From an uncultured virus (IMG/VR IMGVR_UViG_3300025154_000083) (Duplodnaviria > Heunggongvirae > Uroviricota > Caudoviricetes): DNA of 20,000 nucleotides. The stretch lies in IMG/VR virus record IMGVR_UViG_3300025154_000083, positions 47,214 to 67,213 of that record; one strand, 5' to 3'. The number at the start of each line of letters is the position of its first letter. Position 1 is the stretch's first letter. A program made the translations under genes and the position numbers. Positions 1 through 12,204 of this stretch are shown here, piece after piece. The notes beneath the pieces are model-generated. The model saw only the letters and a list, made by a program, of their open reading frames with translations. It was not told the DNA's origin and made no database searches.

Positions 1-17
1 CCAGCCCTGGGTTAGGC
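1..17 (-). other. attC site, partial (R'' box and start of left arm)
   Basis: Minus strand reads GCCTAAC CCAGG GCTGG, 3 nt after the stop of ORF 21-197. It has the same CTAACCCAG start as the attCs beginning at 311 and 1428. Confidence 0.75.
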
Positions 18-20
18 CAT

Positions 21-197
21 TTACTCCGTGATATTAATCCCATCCGAAAACTCGAATTGCGACGGATATATGCCGTATTCTTTCCTGGCCGCCTCGTTCA
101 AAGCTTTCATTGCCTCCGTATGCTCGCATCCAGTCTCATCTACTTCGAATTCCGCCTCGACCAAGAGATGGGCATAGCCCCACGCTTTCATTTTCAT
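21..197 (-). CDS. Hypothetical acidic protein, 58 aa (cassette D); not in the ORF track
   Basis: MKMKAWGYAHLLVEAEFEVDETGCEHTEAMKALNEAARKEYGIYPSQFEFSDGINITE*. It has a GAGGAG RBS upstream and fills the space between two attC sites. Confidence 0.8.
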   Translation of the reverse strand: MKMKAWGYAHLLVEAEFEVDETGCEHTEAMKALNEAARKEYGIYPSQFEFSDGINITE

Positions 198-218
198 TCC
201 GTCTCCTCGGGCCTCGCG

Positions 219-311
219 GCCTAACGTGGCGATAACCCGCGCCGGCCTTAACGGGTTTCCGTAGCACGACTCACGCGCGTGGCCGGCGTCGGGTTCATTG
301 CTGGGTTAGAC
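219..311 (-). other. attC recombination site (93 bp)
   Basis: Minus strand: R'' GTCTAAC, CCAGC, L'' AATGAACC, CGACGCCGGCC ... GGCCGGCGCG, L' GGTTAT, CGCCAC, R' GTTAGGC. Imperfect palindrome with the extra base in L''. Confidence 0.92.
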
Positions 312-448
312 CCCTTTGGCACCCAAGCGTTGGGTGCGGTTGTTCCGCACTTGCGGCACCTCAATGTGGTGCGCGTCACGATAACCTTTCCGCCGCAGGC
401 GCAGCACGAGATACCTCTGTCGCCCGCCGGGAAACTCACTGTTACCAT
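248..448 (-). CDS. Small zinc-ribbon protein (cassette C)
   Basis: Two CxxC pairs (CCACGG...CRKCG). The GAGGAGG RBS at 460-454 favours the ATG at 448 over the track start at 454. The ORF reads into the attC and stops inside it. Confidence 0.7.
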   Translation of the reverse strand: MVTVSFPAGDRGISCCACGGKVIVTRTTLRCRKCGTTAPNAWVPKGSNPAMNPTPATRVSRATETR

Positions 449-463
449 CACCACCTCCTCGCC

Positions 464-571
464 GTCTAACGCTGCGCATCAGCGGCACCGATCACGCGGG
501 CCGAGGACTCGAAGAGACGCAACTGAATTGCCCCCGCGTGGTCGGTGTCCGGCTGCATGCGCTTGTTAGAT
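464..571 (-). other. attC recombination site (108 bp)
   Basis: Minus strand: R'' ATCTAAC, AAGCG, L'' CATGCAGC, CGGACACCGACCACGCGGG ... CCCGCGTGATCGGTGCC, L' GCTGATG, CGCAGC, R' GTTAGAC. Confidence 0.93.
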
Positions 572-1317
572 GATTTGAATCCACGGTACCATGCGTCCAG
601 GTATGCTTTGGGTGTGGGCCAGCGAGTCTTGTCTTCGCCAGCCTTGTTCCAGAACCACCATGTGACCGCATGCTCAAAAACCCGATAACATCCGGGCCAC
701 CTTTGCCTGTGCTGCTTCACCTTACCCATCCCGACCGAGACGATTAAAGGGCACACCATTCAGCCGATCCGGTCAAAGCCCTGGTCATACAGTTCGCAAA
801 ATGGCAGGCCAAGACCTTCGATGAACTCCCAGACGTGCCATTCGTGCCACTCGAAAATGGGAGAATACTGCCATTTGCCGCGAAACCTTGAAATCCTCCC
901 ACGCTCTTTCCTCCCTGGAGACTCTTCGGCCCGTATGCCAACCAGTTTGTGTTTCAAGGGGATAGCTTTCGTTGGGTCTTTCTTTAGTACGTCGCAACAC
1001 CAGCGCTTATTAAAAACGGGAGGAAACTTAGCTCTGATGCCTTCCCACATAGACATGACGGGACGGTAAATACGAGTATCAGGGTATGTCTTGAGCCCGA
1101 ACTTGATCGCCTCAGGTGGATCAATGCCGGTGAAGCTGTGGACCGGAAAGCATTTAACTCCAGCCATTTTCACCAACTCCATGAGCACAACTGAGTCTTT
1201 GCCGAAACTATTGCAAACCATATACCCCTCAGATGGTTCATGAGCCTGCATAAAACCCACGGACTCAGCGACCACGTTTTGCAATGGTACTACCGACATT
1301 TGCTGTGCTCTTGGCAT
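466..1317 (-). CDS. PAPS reductase-family (PP-loop, Fe-S) protein, 283 aa if the in-frame UGA at 760-762 is read as selenocysteine (cassette B)
   Basis: Motifs SFGKDS, FTGIDPPE, RWCCDVLK, GIRAEES..R, PIFEW..VW and LYDQGFDRIG-[TGA]-MVCP. Track ORFs 760-1317 and 466-759 are contiguous and in the same frame. The family call is strong; Sec readthrough is inferred. Confidence 0.85.
723..753 (-). promoter_or_regulatory. Putative bacterial SECIS element
   Basis: mRNA: UGA AUGGUG UGCCC UUUAAUC GUCUC [GGUC] GGGAU GGGUA. The upper stem GUCUC/GGGAU closes a GGUC loop that begins after a 23-nt spacer from the UGA; the lower stem is UGCCC/GGGUA. Confidence 0.65.
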
Positions 1318-1335
1318 TGACTTTACTCTCGCGCG

Positions 1336-1428
1336 GCCTAACTTTGGCGATAACCAGCGGGCACCCTAGCACCGCCGACTGCATAAAACCAAGGCGTGGT
1401 ACCCGTCTGGTTCATTACTGGGTTAGGC
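1336..1428 (-). other. attC recombination site (93 bp)
   Basis: Minus strand: R'' GCCTAAC (contains the TAA stop of the upstream ORF), CCAGT, L'' AATGAACC, AGACGGGTACC ... GGTGCCCGCT, L' GGTTAT, CGCCAAA, R' GTTAGGC. Confidence 0.92.
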
Positions 1429-1671
1429 TTCCGCAAACGCGAAAACCTTAATGGCCTTTCCGTCAAAATCAACCGTGACCGGGTTGAGCCCAAAGAGCCC
1501 CCCGCCGGCGTAATTGCATGGCCCGCCCGTTTTATCGAAAATCTGCTTATCAGAATTCATCGCTCGTCCCACACAGGAGAAAGCCGCTTCCCGGTCTGAT
1601 GCCCCGGCATCCTTCCAATCCTTAACGCTGGCAACGTAGCCACAGGAGGGGCACACAAACTTCCAGCCCAT
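1423..1671 (-). CDS. VVA0879-family-like Cys-containing phage protein (cassette A), possibly N-terminally truncated
   Basis: WKFVCPSCG.V.SV.DW..AGA...FSCVGR...PCNYAGGGLF pattern, recognised from memory of the family. The stop codon lies within the attC R'' box, as is typical for cassettes. Confidence 0.7.
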   Translation of the reverse strand: MGWKFVCPSCGYVASVKDWKDAGASDREAAFSCVGRAMNSDKQIFDKTGGPCNYAGGGLFGLNPVTVDFDGKAIKVFAFAEA

Positions 1672-1717
1672 TGGATCTTTCCCGAATCGCTGGGTTGTCT
1701 ACTCACCGAGCCCAACA

Positions 1718-2479
1718 TCACACTTCAATATGACGCCACGTCATACCAACAGCTATGTGAGAAAGATTGGATTTTTTCATATTAAACATCTTTTGTATAA
1801 TCTTTCTATCAATATTGGCGTTAAGCAGTTTCTTTATGAGCCAAACTTCACCATCTTTCCATTTGGACTTGAAGTGACGCTCTCCATAATCATCTGTTTT
1901 GTATTTAACTGGCGAAACTTCATCATAAGATATGTCAATGTCTCCCCACAACTCATCTCTTCCTATTCTAGCCGTATGATGAGGAGTTACTTTGAACATC
2001 TTGCCTATTAGTATTGACGGTATTCCAGAAAGCCATAGCTTCTTAATAAGCCACACTTCACCATCTTTTAGTTTACTCCTTCCGCTTTTCTCTCCACGCA
2101 GACCATGCTTTAACTCAGTTTTATATGAATGGATTACATTTTCTTGATGAGTTACCCATTCAAGATTAAAATCAAAATTGTTATTCTTATTTCCATCTTT
2201 ATGATTAGCATTTTTGCCACTGGGTCGCTTGCATACAAATGCTTCCAAAACCAAAACATGAATTCTGCAACATTTTACCTTGCCATTCTGACACAGGGCA
2301 ACTTGCAAATAGCCCCACTGGTTTGGACATGCAGAAAGTATTATTGGTAATTTCCTTTTTCTCGATCTCACCCTTCCAAAATTCGATACATCATAATCCT
2401 GGCACCACCACACTGGAATCCAGGTCTCTTTATTGACCTCTGAGCCTTCTTGCAAGATTTGTAAATCTATTGCTTGCAT
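1718..2479 (-). CDS. NUMOD4-HNH homing endonuclease with duplicated C-terminal DNA-binding modules
   Basis: NUMOD4 motif ETWIPV...YDVSNFGRVRS; HNH motif RIHVLVLEAF...NHKDGNKNNN...NLEWVT..EN; two copies of SK.KDGEVWLIKKL. The gene is AT-rich and its start codon is uncertain. Confidence 0.9.
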   Translation of the reverse strand: MQAIDLQILQEGSEVNKETWIPVWWCQDYDVSNFGRVRSRKRKLPIILSACPNQWGYLQVALCQNGKVKCCRIHVLVLEAFVCKRPSGKNANHKDGNKNNNFDFNLEWVTHQENVIHSYKTELKHGLRGEKSGRSKLKDGEVWLIKKLWLSGIPSILIGKMFKVTPHHTARIGRDELWGDIDISYDEVSPVKYKTDDYGERHFKSKWKDGEVWLIKKLLNANIDRKIIQKMFNMKKSNLSHIAVGMTWRHIEV

Positions 2480-4706
2480 CTGTCGTCCTTATGCAAAGGT
2501 TTATTGCCTTTTGTTGGCCTACCAAGACAACATACCTTTTAGCACGAGTGATGGCAGTATACAAGAGATTTCTCCGGAGTTGAATATAATTTGTGGTGTG
2601 TACCGGGATCACAACAACGGGAAATTCACTCCCTTGTGATCGGTGAACAGTAAGCGCATAAGCCATCTGTAGTTGCTCAAAATCCTTGGAAGCATACTCG
2701 ACTTCCCGATCATCGATCATGACCACAACGGCACTCGCATCCCCTCCAAGCACAATCCCCATGTCCCCGTTGAACACCATCTTCTTGTAATCGTTCCTCG
2801 TCTGGATGACCCTATCCCCTGTCAAAAAAGGCGTCCCGCCTATAGCCACCCCTTCGACGTTGATCACGGGCCTCAATCGCCTATTCAGTTCTATCGTCCC
2901 GGCCGGCCCCTTCTTCATGGGACACAACACCTGGATATCCTTCAGGTCAAACCCATAGTGCGCGGAGAATTTCACGCACACCTTCTCTATCATGGGGGCG
3001 ATGCCGTGCTTGTCCTCCTCGGTCACAAAGAAGAAATCCGAGTCGCCATCATTTTTGAGCTCAACCTTCTCGCCGCGATTGATTCGCTGAGCGTTCCGGT
3101 TGATGTAACTCTTCGCGGCCTGGCGATGAAGGGTGGTGAGATGCACTGTGGGGATTATCCACGATTCGATGATGTCTCCCAACACCCTCCCGGCACTCAC
3201 CGACGGCAACTGGGCCGGGTCCCCAACGAGGATAAGCTGCGTCTTCTCCGGGTTGACCGCGGATAACAGGCTCGCCATGAGTTGCACATCCACCATGGAG
3301 GTCTCATCGATCACGAGCACGTCCACGTCGAGGGGGTTGTCCTGGTTGTGGCGGAATCCCACCTCGGGATGAAAGGCGAGCAGGCGGTGAATGGTCATGG
3401 CCGCACGACCGCCGGTTGCCTCGGACATGCGTTTGGCCGCCTTTCCCGTGGGGGCGGCCAGGGCAATATTCAAATCTCGACCCATGGCTCGGATGATGAA
3501 GTTGATCAAGTGGGTTTTGCCAACTCCGGGCCCACCCGCTAGAACCATGATTTTTGACGTCATGGCGAGGTCCAGGCCTCGAAGCTGGTCTTGGTCGAGG
3601 GAGTTGATTTCATCCGAGGAGAGCTCGCTTATCATGGCTGCATGGGGGGTTGAGACGAACTTTAGGAGGGACTGTGCCACGTCGATTTCAGCGGTCCACA
3701 TTTCTGCCGTGTAGATGTAGGTGACGGGGGCGGGAGTGGTTGCATCGACTTTGCCTGCATCACCCTCGAAGGGAAGGGCTTCTTCCTTCAAGGCATCGCT
3801 CTTTTTCTGCGCCTCCATTCCCATCATTTCCCTCCCCGGCGTAAAATCCACCAGCTTCCCCGCGGCGATCATCTCGCTTAGCACCTCAACAACCTTCTCC
3901 TTCCCGGCCTCGAGGATCTCCACGGCGCGCTTGACCAGTTCCTCGAAGGGGAGACAGGTGTGCCCTTCTCTACCGGATGCTTCCTGCAGAACATACCTGA
4001 TTCCGGCCGTCAGACGACGCCTGCTTTCCTTTTTTATCCCGGTGGACACGGCAATGGCGTCGGCTTTCTTGAAGCCTATCCCCCACACATCGTCGGCCAG
4101 AAGGTACACGTTGGCCTCGATCTGCTTCTTGGCTTTCTCCTTGGTGCCGTAAGTGTCCATGAGGCGGTTCAGAAGGGAGGGCGTTATCCCGTGGGTGCTG
4201 AAGTACACGTCAATCGTGCGATCCGACATGATGGAGATGTATTTCTCGTGGATCTCCTGGGCTCGGGCCGGGGTGATGCCATTGACCTCGGAGAGCTTCC
4301 CGGGAGAGTGCTCAATCACTTCGAAGAGGGCTGGGCCGAAGGCCTCCACGAGACGACGCGCAAGAGTAGGTCCGACCCAGCGCAGGCGGTCGAGGTAGTG
4401 GATGATTCCCATGGTATCCCTGGGAAGCTCGCGGGTGGCGTTGGAGAATTTGAATTGCCGGCCGTACCCCGTCTCTTCGTACTTCCCTTCCAGGGTTACG
4501 CAATCCCCGACCTCGAAGTCCAGCGGAAGAACACCGGTAGCCTTTTCTGGAATGCCACTGATCCGGATAATTCTCCAACCTCCCGTGAAGGGGCGGCTCA
4601 TGTCCTTTATGGTCCCGGATATGGTTTCTACGGCGTTGATGGTGGTGGGAGCGGAAGATTGAGATGCGTTGCAAGGTGATGGCGTCTTCCTGGCCAGCTT
4701 AGACAT
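2430..4706 (-). CDS. recD2: RecD2-like SF1B DNA helicase
   Basis: N-terminal OB-like and HhH region; Walker A GGPGVGKT; APTGKAAKRM; TIHRLL; DETSMVD; VGDPAQLPSV; AYALTVHRSQGSEF; LLYTAITRAK. Confidence 0.95.
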   Translation of the reverse strand: MSKLARKTPSPCNASQSSAPTTINAVETISGTIKDMSRPFTGGWRIIRISGIPEKATGVLPLDFEVGDCVTLEGKYEETGYGRQFKFSNATRELPRDTMGIIHYLDRLRWVGPTLARRLVEAFGPALFEVIEHSPGKLSEVNGITPARAQEIHEKYISIMSDRTIDVYFSTHGITPSLLNRLMDTYGTKEKAKKQIEANVYLLADDVWGIGFKKADAIAVSTGIKKESRRRLTAGIRYVLQEASGREGHTCLPFEELVKRAVEILEAGKEKVVEVLSEMIAAGKLVDFTPGREMMGMEAQKKSDALKEEALPFEGDAGKVDATTPAPVTYIYTAEMWTAEIDVAQSLLKFVSTPHAAMISELSSDEINSLDQDQLRGLDLAMTSKIMVLAGGPGVGKTHLINFIIRAMGRDLNIALAAPTGKAAKRMSEATGGRAAMTIHRLLAFHPEVGFRHNQDNPLDVDVLVIDETSMVDVQLMASLLSAVNPEKTQLILVGDPAQLPSVSAGRVLGDIIESWIIPTVHLTTLHRQAAKSYINRNAQRINRGEKVELKNDGDSDFFFVTEEDKHGIAPMIEKVCVKFSAHYGFDLKDIQVLCPMKKGPAGTIELNRRLRPVINVEGVAIGGTPFLTGDRVIQTRNDYKKMVFNGDMGIVLGGDASAVVVMIDDREVEYASKDFEQLQMAYALTVHRSQGSEFPVVVIPVHTTNYIQLRRNLLYTAITRAKRYVVLVGQQKAINLCIRTTDASNRFTNLARRLRGQ

Positions 4707-5576: not shown

Positions 5577-6719
5577 CTAAAACGGTGACTTCTCTCCCGC
5601 TCCGCTTCCGGTTCCACCAGCAGCCCCACCCTTCTTGGCCTGGCCCGCGCTGGAATCCTTGGCGCCAGCATCCTTAACTTGGCTCGCGCTGGCCCCTCCA
5701 GCAGGCTTCATAAACTCGGGCTCTCCGGGCCTGCTTTCTGTGCCGCCAGCACCCTCGCCTGCTCCGCCATATCCTCCACCAGCGCCACCTTCCCCGCCCA
5801 TCCTGGCCGCGGTAGCTTCCGCAGCCTCTTCCGCCTCGAACGTAGTCTGAACGCTGGCATCCTTCAGGGACTCGACCGTCGGGATGATGATCTCGTTCAG
5901 CAGCACCTCGTCAACCGGCTTCGGCATGGTGAACTTCGCGCGATAGTGCTTCTGAGGCTCGAGCCTTTTTTCCAGGGATATCTCGGTCTGGAACATGAAG
6001 AAGGGCTTGCGGCGGAGCATGACTCCCGAAATAAAACCCTTGGTGGGCTTGATGCTTACGCCGTGGAGCGTCAACCAAAATGGGATAGAGTCTTCCAGCC
6101 CGATGCAGAGGAGATTGTAGGACATGCCGCACGGAGGCTTGGTTTTCCCGTCCTCATCCCAGGCACCGAAGGGACAAACCTGCTTGGGGCGATTCCCAGG
6201 CCCCATTACGGCGCAGACCTTTGAAGGAGGAAGCGGATGGCGCGGATCGGGCTCCCAGTAGTTGTACGAGCGACAGAGCAAGTCACCGCCGTCTCCGGAA
6301 GCGAGCCATTCACTGTTCTTGCCGGTTTCGGAAATCAGGTCCTGTATGTAGGCGTTGACTTCGGGGGAGTTTTTGGAGCGGTCCTGCTGCGACCAGAAGC
6401 TACGGCCTTTGTCGGCCTTCACGATCACCACGTTCAGGGTTTCCACCTCTTCGCCGGTAAGGTTGCAAAGAAAGTTTCCTTCCGTGCCTGTCTTGCTGGT
6501 CGGCTGGATGACCCGGTATCGCGGGATTACCAGATCGGATGAATCGAAGGCCTCCCATCCGGTGTAGCCCTGGAGGCTTTCCGGGATGGCTATGGTGCCG
6601 GCGTGGGAGTGGACGGCGGGGACTTGTGCCTGAGACTGCACTTGGGACTGGTCTTTGTCGGACATGATGTTTTCCTTTCCATGTTTACGCTGTTCTCTGA
6701 GTTTTGCAAAATCAACCAT
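5577..6719 (-). CDS. Putative single-stranded DNA-binding / recombination protein
   Basis: SDLVIPRYRVIQPTS N-terminal motif, long Gly/Ala-rich disordered tail ending in SPF (SSB-like tip), and position between the exonuclease and helicase. Function is inferred; an alternative start is at 6665. Confidence 0.6.
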   Translation of the reverse strand: MVDFAKLREQRKHGKENIMSDKDQSQVQSQAQVPAVHSHAGTIAIPESLQGYTGWEAFDSSDLVIPRYRVIQPTSKTGTEGNFLCNLTGEEVETLNVVIVKADKGRSFWSQQDRSKNSPEVNAYIQDLISETGKNSEWLASGDGGDLLCRSYNYWEPDPRHPLPPSKVCAVMGPGNRPKQVCPFGAWDEDGKTKPPCGMSYNLLCIGLEDSIPFWLTLHGVSIKPTKGFISGVMLRRKPFFMFQTEISLEKRLEPQKHYRAKFTMPKPVDEVLLNEIIIPTVESLKDASVQTTFEAEEAAEATAARMGGEGGAGGGYGGAGEGAGGTESRPGEPEFMKPAGGASASQVKDAGAKDSSAGQAKKGGAAGGTGSGAGEKSPF

Positions 6720-9688: not shown

Positions 9689-9923
9689 TTTCGGTTTTCC
9701 TTTCTTCAAGTCGCGTCTTGATGAATCCGTAGACCTTGGAAGACATGAGCCGCTCCAGCCTGGAGATGATGGCATACTCCGTGCGGCCATGCTTTCCCAC
9801 TGCATCATCCAGAAAGGCGAGGAAGGCGACGGTCAATTCCATGTCTTCCTTGTCGGTCCATGGCTGGCCTTTCTTAATGGAACGTGTTGAAGGTTTGATG
9901 TCGTAGTCGTCCGCATCCATCAT
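9678..9923 (-). CDS. Small Myb/HTH-like protein
   Basis: GQPWTDKEDMEL...HGRTEYAIISRL pattern; ATGA overlap with the upstream stop at 9920-9922. Confidence 0.65.
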   Translation of the reverse strand: MMDADDYDIKPSTRSIKKGQPWTDKEDMELTVAFLAFLDDAVGKHGRTEYAIISRLERLMSSKVYGFIKTRLEERKTENAK

Positions 9924-10669
9924 GACCCTTGCCCTTCTCTCCACAAAACAGGCACCGTATCAGGGTTGGGACATCGAAACGACCACCACCAGATTTCTCT
10001 GCGCTCCAAAACAAGACAATAGCCACCAGACAAGAAAGGACACATGAAAATCAACGCTCGATTCTCGCTTGATATTTTGTACATACCAAAGCGATTTCTA
10101 GCTGATTCAATGCCATTAGTCTTCCACTCCCGAAAGACCATGGGAGCCAAGTCTATCGCATCGGATAGGTCTGAAAGACACATTAAGTCGCCTATTTTTG
10201 CCCCGTTGAGGGATGCCCCGTCGAGGGATGCCCCGTCGAGGAATGCCCCGTTGAGGGATGCCCCGTTGAGGGATGCCCCGTTGAGGGATGCCCTGTTGAG
10301 GAATGCCCCGTTGAGGAATGCCCCGTTGAGGGATGCCCTGTTGAGGGATGCCCCGACGAGGGATGCCCCGACGAGGGATGCCCCGTTGAGGGATGCCCCG
10401 ACGAGGGATGCCCCGACGAGGCATCCCCCGACGAGGGATGCCCTGTTGAGGGATGCCCTGTTGAGGGATGCCCCGTTGAGGAATGCCCCGTTGAGGGATG
10501 CCCCGTCGAGGAATGCCCCGTTGAGGGATGCCCTGTTGAGATTGACTTTTAATCTTACAGCCAGTTCAAGCGCGGCTTTTAAGGCATAACGCTCATTGCT
10601 TACATCTACTTCTGTCTCGAAAAGCACGGAAGCATCAAACCAAGATTTGATCTGTGTCAATACCTTCAT
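9920..10669 (-). CDS. Pentapeptide repeat protein
   Basis: 23 consecutive xL(N/D/V)(G/R)A pentapeptides; N-terminal IKSWF...VLFE...LKAALELAV as in phage pentapeptide proteins; AGGAG RBS. Confidence 0.93.
   Translation of the reverse strand: MKVLTQIKSWFDASVLFETEVDVSNERYALKAALELAVRLKVNLNRASLNGAFLDGASLNGAFLNGASLNRASLNRASLVGGCLVGASLVGASLNGASLVGASLVGASLNRASLNGAFLNGAFLNRASLNGASLNGASLNGAFLDGASLDGASLNGAKIGDLMCLSDLSDAIDLAPMVFREWKTNGIESARNRFGMYKISSENRALIFMCPFLSGGYCLVLERREIWWWSFRCPNPDTVPVLWREGQGS
10199..10543. repeat. 15-bp tandem repeat, 23 units (consensus TGCCCCGTTGAGGGA), coding for the pentapeptide repeat
   Basis: Directly visible near-identical 15-mers without spacers. Confidence 0.97.
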
Positions 10670-11492: not shown

Positions 11493-12065
11493 TCACTCCT
11501 TGAACTTTGCCAGCTTTCCGGCGGCGTGAAAGATCTCATGGCAGTCAGAGCACAAAACCACCAAGTCGGTGAGTAACTCATGAAAAATCCGCTCATAGGT
11601 TCGGTGATGAACATTCAAACCCTTCCCGCCCGCTAGATTTTGAGCGTTGCAGACTTGGCATCGATACTCGGCCTCCTCGAGCTTTGCGCCTCTTACCGCG
11701 GACCACTCGGGGGACATGAGGTATTCATGGTAGATTTGGCGTCTGGTCTTGGGCGGAGGAGGCTGCGACAAAGACTGCGGGGCGGATTGAGAAATAATAA
11801 TTTTGTTCCTTGCCCCCAAAATTACGTATTGAGACCAGCCGAATAACGTACCAACAAGATCTTCCCACTGGCCTTCGGTTATCTCTGATTCATTAATATA
11901 ATGTGTTATCTCATTGAGATTATTGTCGATAACAGAAATCCACGCATCTCTTTCCCTGGATCTTTTATTTTCTTCCAGACATTTTATGAAATCATAATCG
12001 TCATGGACCTTCTTTTCGTGTGGACTTTCTTCCCTGCCCATTTGAATCAATTCATCAAGCGTCAT
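11493..12065 (-). CDS. HNH endonuclease domain protein (Zn-binding type)
   Basis: YHEYLMSPEW..VR......YRCQVC...LNVHHRTYE......DLVVLCSDCHEIFH; AAGGAG RBS. Confidence 0.88.
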   Translation of the reverse strand: MTLDELIQMGREESPHEKKVHDDYDFIKCLEENKRSRERDAWISVIDNNLNEITHYINESEITEGQWEDLVGTLFGWSQYVILGARNKIIISQSAPQSLSQPPPPKTRRQIYHEYLMSPEWSAVRGAKLEEAEYRCQVCNAQNLAGGKGLNVHHRTYERIFHELLTDLVVLCSDCHEIFHAAGKLAKFKE

Positions 12066-12127: not shown

Positions 12128-12176
12128 GGAAATTTTCACATGGGCAACAAAAAAATAATTCCCAATGAGAAATGAT

Positions 12177-12204
12177 TTGACAAGCTGGTTGAAGTCGCTA
12201 GAAT
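12177..12204 (+). promoter_or_regulatory. Rightward sigma70-type promoter
   Basis: TTGACA-16 bp-TAGAAT, followed by a GGAGG RBS and the ATG at 12226. Confidence 0.75.

Follow-up and report, generated by a model that had tools for sequence, protein, structure and literature searches.

Integron gene cassettes are usually seen as a bacterial property that is moved by plasmids and transposons, and the locus described here raises the question of whether a phage can carry such cassettes and take part in their exchange. It lies at the left end of a 20,000-nucleotide (nt) stretch of DNA, hereafter the window (G000:C1:47214-67213), which forms the final 20 kb of the 67,213-bp uncultured virus record IMGVR_UViG_3300025154_000083 (G000) and in which an earlier note had pointed to a series of attC sites at the end of a phage operon. 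This phage, which is of groundwater origin and about 89 kb in size, carries an integrase-less array of five cassettes, that is, a cluster of attC sites lacking an integron-integrase (CALIN), together with a separate single-cassette site, and we propose that these cassettes are likely to be exchanged by a host integron integrase (IntI) supplied in trans. The array stands at the 3′ end of a leftward run of replication genes, between a RecD2-like helicase and an HNH endonuclease gene on one side and a gene for a 127-amino-acid (aa) protein with a terminator on the other.

Six attC sites are present in the 67-kb record, five of them in the array and one at a lone position 11 kb away. They are listed below in window coordinates unless marked as genome (record) coordinates, with their scores under the two covariance models R1 and R2, whose construction is given further on, and with their predicted DNA folds.

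Genome 36350-36442: attC S1, the lone site, at a single-cassette locus 11 kb from the array.
Genome 46909-46998, left of the window: attC S2, which ends cassette 5.
Genome 47138-47230 (93 nt; window 1..17 is its 3′ end with the GTTAGGC core), + strand as bottom strand: attC S3; R1 93.8 bits, R2 44.3 bits (scored as L006 14139-14231).
219..311 (93 nt), + strand as bottom strand: attC S4; R1 87.4 bits, R2 55.6 bits; fold -29 kcal/mol, z -4.5.
464..571 (108 nt), + strand as bottom strand: attC S5; R1 64.3 bits, R2 42.5 bits; fold -36.8 kcal/mol, z -7.0.
1336..1428 (93 nt), + strand as bottom strand: attC S6; R1 92.6 bits, R2 50.3 bits; fold z -1.9.

The three complete sites had been placed by the earlier note at exactly these coordinates, which both models recovered, and the partial fourth site that it saw at 17-1 is real, being the last 17 nt of the full-length S3. 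Its description of RYYYAAC...GTTRRRY ends was likewise borne out. The terminal core boxes are exact in 10 of 12 cases, and the other two have one mismatch each (GCATAAC in S3 and GTTATGC in S2) and are the two ends of cassette 5; two single-base bulges (T and C) occur at fixed spacing in the 3′ arm of the + strand in all six sites. When a 24-pair structure was laid on the six-site alignment, standard pairs filled 95.1% of the 144 pair cells, compared with 26.8-38.4% in a control in which the partners were slid by 1-3 columns. Compensatory change on both sides was found in 13 of the 24 pairs, and none of 500 shuffles reached the observed values of pairing or covariation. The sites range in length from 90 to 108 nt, their central parts do not align whereas their arms covary, and their + strands fold as single-stranded DNA into long imperfect hairpins (z -1.9 to -7.9, weakest in S6).

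A link to bacterial integrons was sought with covariance models, as Rfam holds no attC family. R1 was built from the six phage sites and run on 69 loci of species-representative genomes, each containing one match to an 18-nt attC-arm pattern; by our own arithmetic, 69 such matches are near or below the chance expectation for 16 fixed bases in 596 Gb. Arrays of attC sites were detected in five of these bacterial loci, and an integron integrase adjoins two of the five arrays, just downstream and on the same strand, with scores of 489.8 bits (G001) and 473.6 bits (G002; 474 bits when re-scored at L018 4847-5788) against the TIGR02249 cut-off of 265 bits. In these two complete integrons the matches precede an intI carried on the modelled strand, which identifies the phage + strand as the bottom strand of attC; the cassettes are therefore read leftwards with the phage genes, as the earlier note had held. 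R2, built only from the 10 attC sites of the same two integrons, found all six phage sites on the correct strand (42.5-56.5 bits) and no further site anywhere in the 67 kb. One bacterial site (L039 5940-6020) has arms, GCGATAACCCGC...GGTCGGGTTCATTGC..GGGTTAGGC, that are nearly those of window 219-311, T and C bulges included. The phage sites thus share attC architecture, arm sequences and strand logic with sedentary chromosomal integrons of Betaproteobacteria/Burkholderiales, represented by the metagenome-assembled loci L018 and L039, and in both settings promoterless cassettes follow one another in series. The bacterial arrays differ in being adjoined by intI (474 and 490 bits), and presumably by attI and Pc, where the phage has the helicase and the HNH gene. 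We consider the attC-type nature of the six sites, and the identity of the units that they delimit as cassettes, to be well supported.

On the coding strand, the order of elements is helicase, HNH gene, boundary G|TTGGGC, cassettes 1 to 5 with S6, S5, S4, S3 and S2, respectively, and then the 127-aa gene. Every cassette open reading frame (ORF), including that of the lone cassette, lies on the − strand, as does the attC top strand.

1710..1716, + strand GCCCAA|C (coding strand G|TTGGGC): boundary on the upstream side of the array, fitting both GTTRRRY and the G|WT insertion motif.
1423..1671, − strand: cassette 1 ORF, 82 aa, a CxxC protein of the VVA0879 family (NF041591, 78 bits, cut-off 37; phrog_32023, E 1e-5).
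466..1317, − strand: cassette 2, PAPS-reductase-like, consisting of the adjacent in-frame ORFs 760-1317 (185 aa) and 466-759 (97 aa), with a 3′ end that overlaps S5.
248..448, − strand: cassette 3 ORF, 66 aa, zinc-ribbon-like with CxxC...CxxC, its ATG following GGAGGTG (68 aa if a GTG at 454 is used).
21..197, − strand: cassette 4 ORF, 58 aa, acidic, preceded by GAGGAG.

Cassette 5 encodes 69 aa, mostly outside the window, and the lone cassette 118 aa. The cargo had been named correctly in the earlier note as VVA0879-like, PAPS reductase and zinc ribbon. Its statement that each site follows one ORF stands with regard to the arrangement of site after ORF and fails for cassette 2, with its two ORFs. 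The final ~21 codons of cassette 3 fall inside S4, and this protein has only a weak rubrerythrin-like match; the cassette 4 ORF had no match in Pfam, PHROG or NCBIfam. In a protein atlas, the best scores for the 118-aa and 58-aa ORFs were 0.81-0.84, below 0.9, and provide leads only (viral clusters, some ASCH). Neither an attI nor an attC was detected to the right of the boundary at 1710..1716. Between this boundary and the start codon of cassette 1, the coding strand at window ~1686-1700 reads GACAACCCAGCGAT, which resembles the R″-spacer-L″ start of the phage attC sites; as a candidate remnant half-site it was scored by neither R1 nor R2 and was dropped.

The phage-borne location of the array is secure. 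Phage genes flank it on both sides in a single contig, and to its left, where the earlier note had left it to be checked whether phage genes resume, there are structural and other phage genes. The concern that the junction near 1716 might be an assembly chimera was dispelled by an independent 10-kb Logan contig, which spans window 219 to beyond 2500 and crosses the junction with 0 differences. Logan contigs of groundwater runs contain the stretch. In the probable source sample, two of them (L006 12500-14455 and 14433-16501) cover both array junctions without differences and break only at the repeated attC S4; further contigs from this sample bear related attC sites in other contexts, and runs of other studies contain a relative resembling the 85-kb related phage G004 as well as low-depth pieces identical to the array. 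An 89,432-bp IMG/VR record rated 100% complete (G005) has a helicase 100% identical to that of G000 and an identical attC array. As the earlier note had reported for the window, no integron integrase was found: TIGR02249 had 0 matches in G000, which also has no tyrosine or serine recombinase. The alternative suggestion of an integrase encoded beyond the left edge did not survive, as neither PF00589 nor PF00239 has a match in G005, and the same is true of G004. With no integrase on the phage, supply in trans is the only remaining option, and since the helicase and HNH gene are found upstream of cassette 1, the array is classed as a CALIN rather than as a complete integron.

Comparison with G004 supports the earlier proposal that the array can be shuffled. 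The backbones of the two phages are 78-95% identical at the nucleotide level and their helicases 83% identical, whereas no cassette ORF is common to both. At the array (locus A), G004 has one cassette where this phage has five: in place of the HNH gene and the array there is an unrelated 73-aa ORF with an attC of the S2 family (48.9-69 bits; 48.9 bits with R2 versus 11.7 on the opposite strand), followed by the 127-aa gene at 96% aa identity. At the lone site (locus B), G004 has two cassettes (72-aa and 69-aa ORFs, with one full and one short attC) versus the single 118-aa cassette here, and backbone homology resumes just outside the core sites. Individual cassettes also recur elsewhere. Cassette 5 is found in the array of the metagenomic contig L106 at 57% aa identity, with an attC of 92% nt identity and similarity that ends right after GTTAGGCC, and L098 contains a counterpart of the lone cassette (50% aa identity, attC 76-86% nt identity); flanks and neighbours differ in both cases. 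In the phage and in L106 alike, the unusual 5′ end of cassette 5 (TTATGC) and its equally unusual inverse core (GCATAA) correspond to each other, as expected of a unit that circularises. More widely, the same attC family occurs on metagenome contigs that are otherwise unrelated to this phage, where it forms series of as many as six or seven sites (L103, L106), and the phage sites are 83-92% identical in nt sequence to sites of long arrays on otherwise unrelated contigs.

We hypothesise that, during infection, a host integron integrase would act in trans on the phage genome to insert, excise or swap cassettes. The first cassette would probably have entered at a secondary site of the G|WT type, and later events may have taken place at the resident attC sites. 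Being promoterless, the cassettes would then probably depend on read-through from phage promoters further upstream for their transcription and on Shine-Dalgarno sites of their own for translation. Each cassette ORF has a Shine-Dalgarno-like sequence, and the − strand within the array holds no sigma-70-like promoter site. The nearest − strand candidates are the one listed next and a weak one within the HNH gene.

12155..12183, − strand: candidate leftward sigma-70-like promoter (9 of 12 positions, a consensus match only), in the divergent region heading the gene run that ends in the array.

Read-through transcription of the cassettes from upstream phage promoters is plausible, judging by their co-orientation and by the lack of a promoter-like site in the array. 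Several cassettes begin, just after the core, with a conserved leader of ~25 nt (coding strand TTAGGCCGCGAGGCC..GGAGG) that includes the ribosome-binding site; this leader, seen at window 198-225 and 1318-1342, genome 36794-36823, L106 ~6310-6342 and L098 ~1375-1415, travels with unrelated ORFs.

Several observations weigh against exchange by a host integrase. The Logan contigs contain no recombination event, excised circle or order variant, and the one joint found, from L006 14230 to 14431 in X5 (one contig, depth 4.4, side 31), is off the expected attC × attC crossover points. Only one of four first-cassette junctions has G at -1, the others having A, A and T, compared with the published motif GWT. 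In canonical attC sites the first bulged base is G, whereas it is C in the phage sites, and in S1 and S4 most of the spacer separating the R and L boxes is paired. The phage sites resemble one another more closely than they resemble any bacterial attC of the species-representative genomes (best 44 bits, R1). The training sites of R2 were themselves picked by R1, so that this test is partly circular and not fully independent; the intI adjacency of these sites is independent evidence all the same. Finally, the differences between the two phages could come from homologous recombination between similar attC sites and leaders. This underlies the main rival explanation, namely that pieces of a host array were captured long ago by illegitimate or homologous recombination, that the attC sites are now inert, and that the differences from G004 reflect phage mosaicism via patches of homology. 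The missing integrase and recombination products fit such a history, as do attC sites and 5′ leaders similar enough to serve as patches and the existence of other regions that vary relative to G004 and have no attC (genome 44.5-46.4 kb and the HNH insertions); illegitimate or homologous recombination is also discussed as a route of entry into phages in the part of the survey by Qi et al. (PMC9892861) considered here. We nevertheless judge it unlikely, because full pairing, both bulges and the core boxes have been kept in all six sites, which argues for maintained function, the differences come in cassette units at two separate loci, whole cassettes recur in unrelated contexts with similarity stopping right after GTTAGGCC, and the two ends of cassette 5 carry matching versions of its variant core.

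Far less probable is that the hairpins are intergenic elements of the phage itself, such as terminators, RNA-processing sites or targets of phage nucleases, that came to resemble attC by convergence. They do lie between genes of one transcription unit, with HNH endonuclease genes nearby, and attC sites are thought to be weak terminators according to the same part of PMC9892861. Such convergence would have to account for strand-specific scores of 42.5-56.5 bits under R2, a model drawn from intI-adjacent sites only, and for the close identity to sites in long arrays on otherwise unrelated contigs; in addition, G004 has an attC at the array locus, where it lacks the HNH gene. That an array of a bacterial chromosome was joined to phage sequence by misassembly or host contamination is barely credible: the Logan contigs of the probable source sample do break at the repeated S4, yet phage genes occur on both sides in a single contig, the same array is found in the 89-kb record, both junctions are spanned, with 0 differences, by a pair of overlapping Logan contigs, and attC sites of the same family occupy the same two positions in G004. 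We therefore favour the reading in which a host integrase exchanges the cassettes in trans.

That phages can carry CALINs is not itself new, as it was first published in 2023, for a few cultured phages and together with recombination assays (Qi et al. 2023, Front Microbiol, PMC9892861). In the part of that survey drawn on here, 10,705 NCBI phage genomes were screened and 17 CALINs found, some of them in virulent phages, and five of six attC sites from virulent phages were recombined by IntI1 (section 3.4). To judge from the same part, the published phage CALINs resemble the present one in their co-oriented attC cassettes, the lack of intI, cargo mostly of unknown function and the proposal of a host integrase in trans. 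The present case differs from them in concerning an uncultivated ~89-kb groundwater phage from IMG/VR that is known from sequence alone and has two cassette loci (five cassettes and one), in having a relative with other cassettes at both loci, and in sharing cassettes with other metagenomic arrays. Two-locus turnover between relatives and cassettes common to other arrays are what is added here to the known phage CALINs. The entry route has a parallel in the work of Loot et al. (10.1101/2022.09.11.507474), where, in the portion consulted, IntI is described as inserting cassettes into ordinary double-stranded DNA anywhere in a genome, with a short G|WT motif as the target. Insertion of this attG type would account for the first junction G|TTGGGC and for the lone cassette; in that portion of the report it was shown in the Escherichia coli chromosome, whereas we deal with phage DNA in which three of four first junctions have A or T at -1. 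The loci also recall the hot spots of phage morons and accessory genes, where the end of an early or replication operon is occupied by small, variable and promoter-poor genes that are not the same in close relatives. Unlike at those hot spots, structured attC sites and G|TTRRRY cores delimit the variable units here and point to site-specific rather than illegitimate recombination.

Cassette-by-cassette difference between integrase-less relatives is the pattern expected if phage genomes join in cassette exchange during infection. If this is true, phages can transfer cassettes from one host to another and can also use the host integrase to renew the accessory genes that they carry themselves. 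A bolder and rather doubtful extension is that phages and host integrons share one cassette pool with gene flow in both directions, some cassettes having been born from phage genes and the PAPS-reductase cassette being in addition a phage selenoprotein. Were it to hold, phages would be a source of integron cassettes and would offer a concrete case for the old question of where cassettes originate.

The lead in this direction, both on cassette origin and on the use of selenocysteine by a phage gene, is cassette 2, in which a single in-frame TGA at window 760-762 (− strand) splits the PAPS-reductase-like gene. The PF01507 (PAPS_reduct) match scores 78.1 bits as split; when the TGA is read through, it becomes longer and its score rises to 87 bits. 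This TGA aligns with the first Cys of the invariant RIGCxxCP motif; among 80 viral homologue loci, 78 have Cys at this position (65 by regular expression and 13 by eye) and TGA is found in only two, those of G004 and of this phage (represented by its twin G005). Both gene halves are conserved between the two phages. A global recoding of TGA was considered and rejected, since TGA serves as an ordinary stop that ends 20 of 49 ORFs. In both phages a hairpin with a GGUC or GUC apical loop follows 23-30 nt after the UGA (here at about window 718-750), with differing stem sequences and z values of -0.2 to -1.5 that are not significant; it was assessed by general criteria for selenocysteine insertion sequences. 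The best reading of this TGA is a candidate selenocysteine codon in a putative phage-encoded selenoprotein, its rival being a split gene with re-initiation, for which the ATG or GTG directly after the TGA speaks. A tblastn search of phages with the 97-aa second half gave no match. No phage selenoprotein was found in literature listings, and a 2026 review of the prokaryotic selenoproteome has 0 mentions of phage, virus or PAPS, which does not prove that none has been published.

G004 carries the TGA-bearing gene (L092 12427-13365) as an ordinary gene that lacks an attC; the corresponding locus of this phage (genome ~42.38-42.44 kb) is empty. The two copies share ~50% aa identity, and only the one here is an attC-bearing cassette. 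Because the TGA is shared only with the G004 copy and the attC is found only here, the gene is a lead for phage-born cassettes, and the pair may record either cassette birth or attC loss. In a tree of 40 of the 80 homologues, picked as the uppermost entries of the list and a spread of others, both TGA-bearing genes fall in one strongly supported clade of 15 and are not sisters; the starred branches do not forbid a single origin, which the two genes may have.

With regard to the record as a whole, G000 is rated 97% complete, although its first ORF is an interrupted major-head ORF. Since it begins within this ORF, the 67-kb record is probably a large piece of the 89-kb G005 genome, and the spacing of sites in G000 versus G005 suggests that the 89-kb contig closes on itself with an overlap of ~126 nt. 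None of the phages in INPHARED gave a megablast match for the whole window. The array is flanked upstream by two genes.

2430..4706, − strand: RecD2-like helicase (83% aa identity in G004), with which the conserved backbone upstream of the array ends.
1718..2479, − strand: HNH/NUMOD4 homing-endonuclease gene between helicase and array, of low G+C and not present in G004.

The HNH gene is one of three low-G+C HNH endonuclease genes (window 1718-2479, window 11493-12065 and genome 42710-43390). The final ~50 helicase codons differ in G004, which has no array-adjacent HNH gene, a pattern as seen after a homing event. Downstream, the array is followed by the conserved 127-aa gene (phrog_23101) and a terminator-like hairpin, and a search for related loci with this gene returned the same two phages only. 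Converging on this terminator from the left of the window is a 1.9-kb block (genome 44503-46372) of three + strand genes (phrog_3230, phrog_13321 and a 142-aa ORF) that is missing from G004 and whose edges have no attC.

Other IMG/VR records (L012/L007 from G007/G006, L014 from G008 and L013 from G009) contain 3-8 co-oriented attC-like sites and no integron integrase, with eight such sites within 3 kb in L013. In G007, a 39-kb record rated complete, a generic phage tyrosine integrase lies 6 kb from the sites; it was rejected as an IntI, scoring 49 bits with TIGR02249 against the cut-off of 265.

Beyond the array, the window encodes replication functions, including the RecD2-like helicase, HNH endonucleases, a PolB-type exonuclease, an SbcC-like ATPase and a primase (+ strand). 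An Rfam scan of the window gave matches to mir-9242, mir-754 and suhB far below the gathering scores, which were taken as chance; the mir-9242 match at 10405-10517 is spurious because of pentapeptide repeats, and a 249-aa pentapeptide-repeat protein is encoded at window 9920-10669 within the replication operon. Genes for head, tail-fibre and internal virion proteins occupy the left 35 kb of the record, and amid these structural genes lies a single ORF of 4576 aa (genome 18740-32470).

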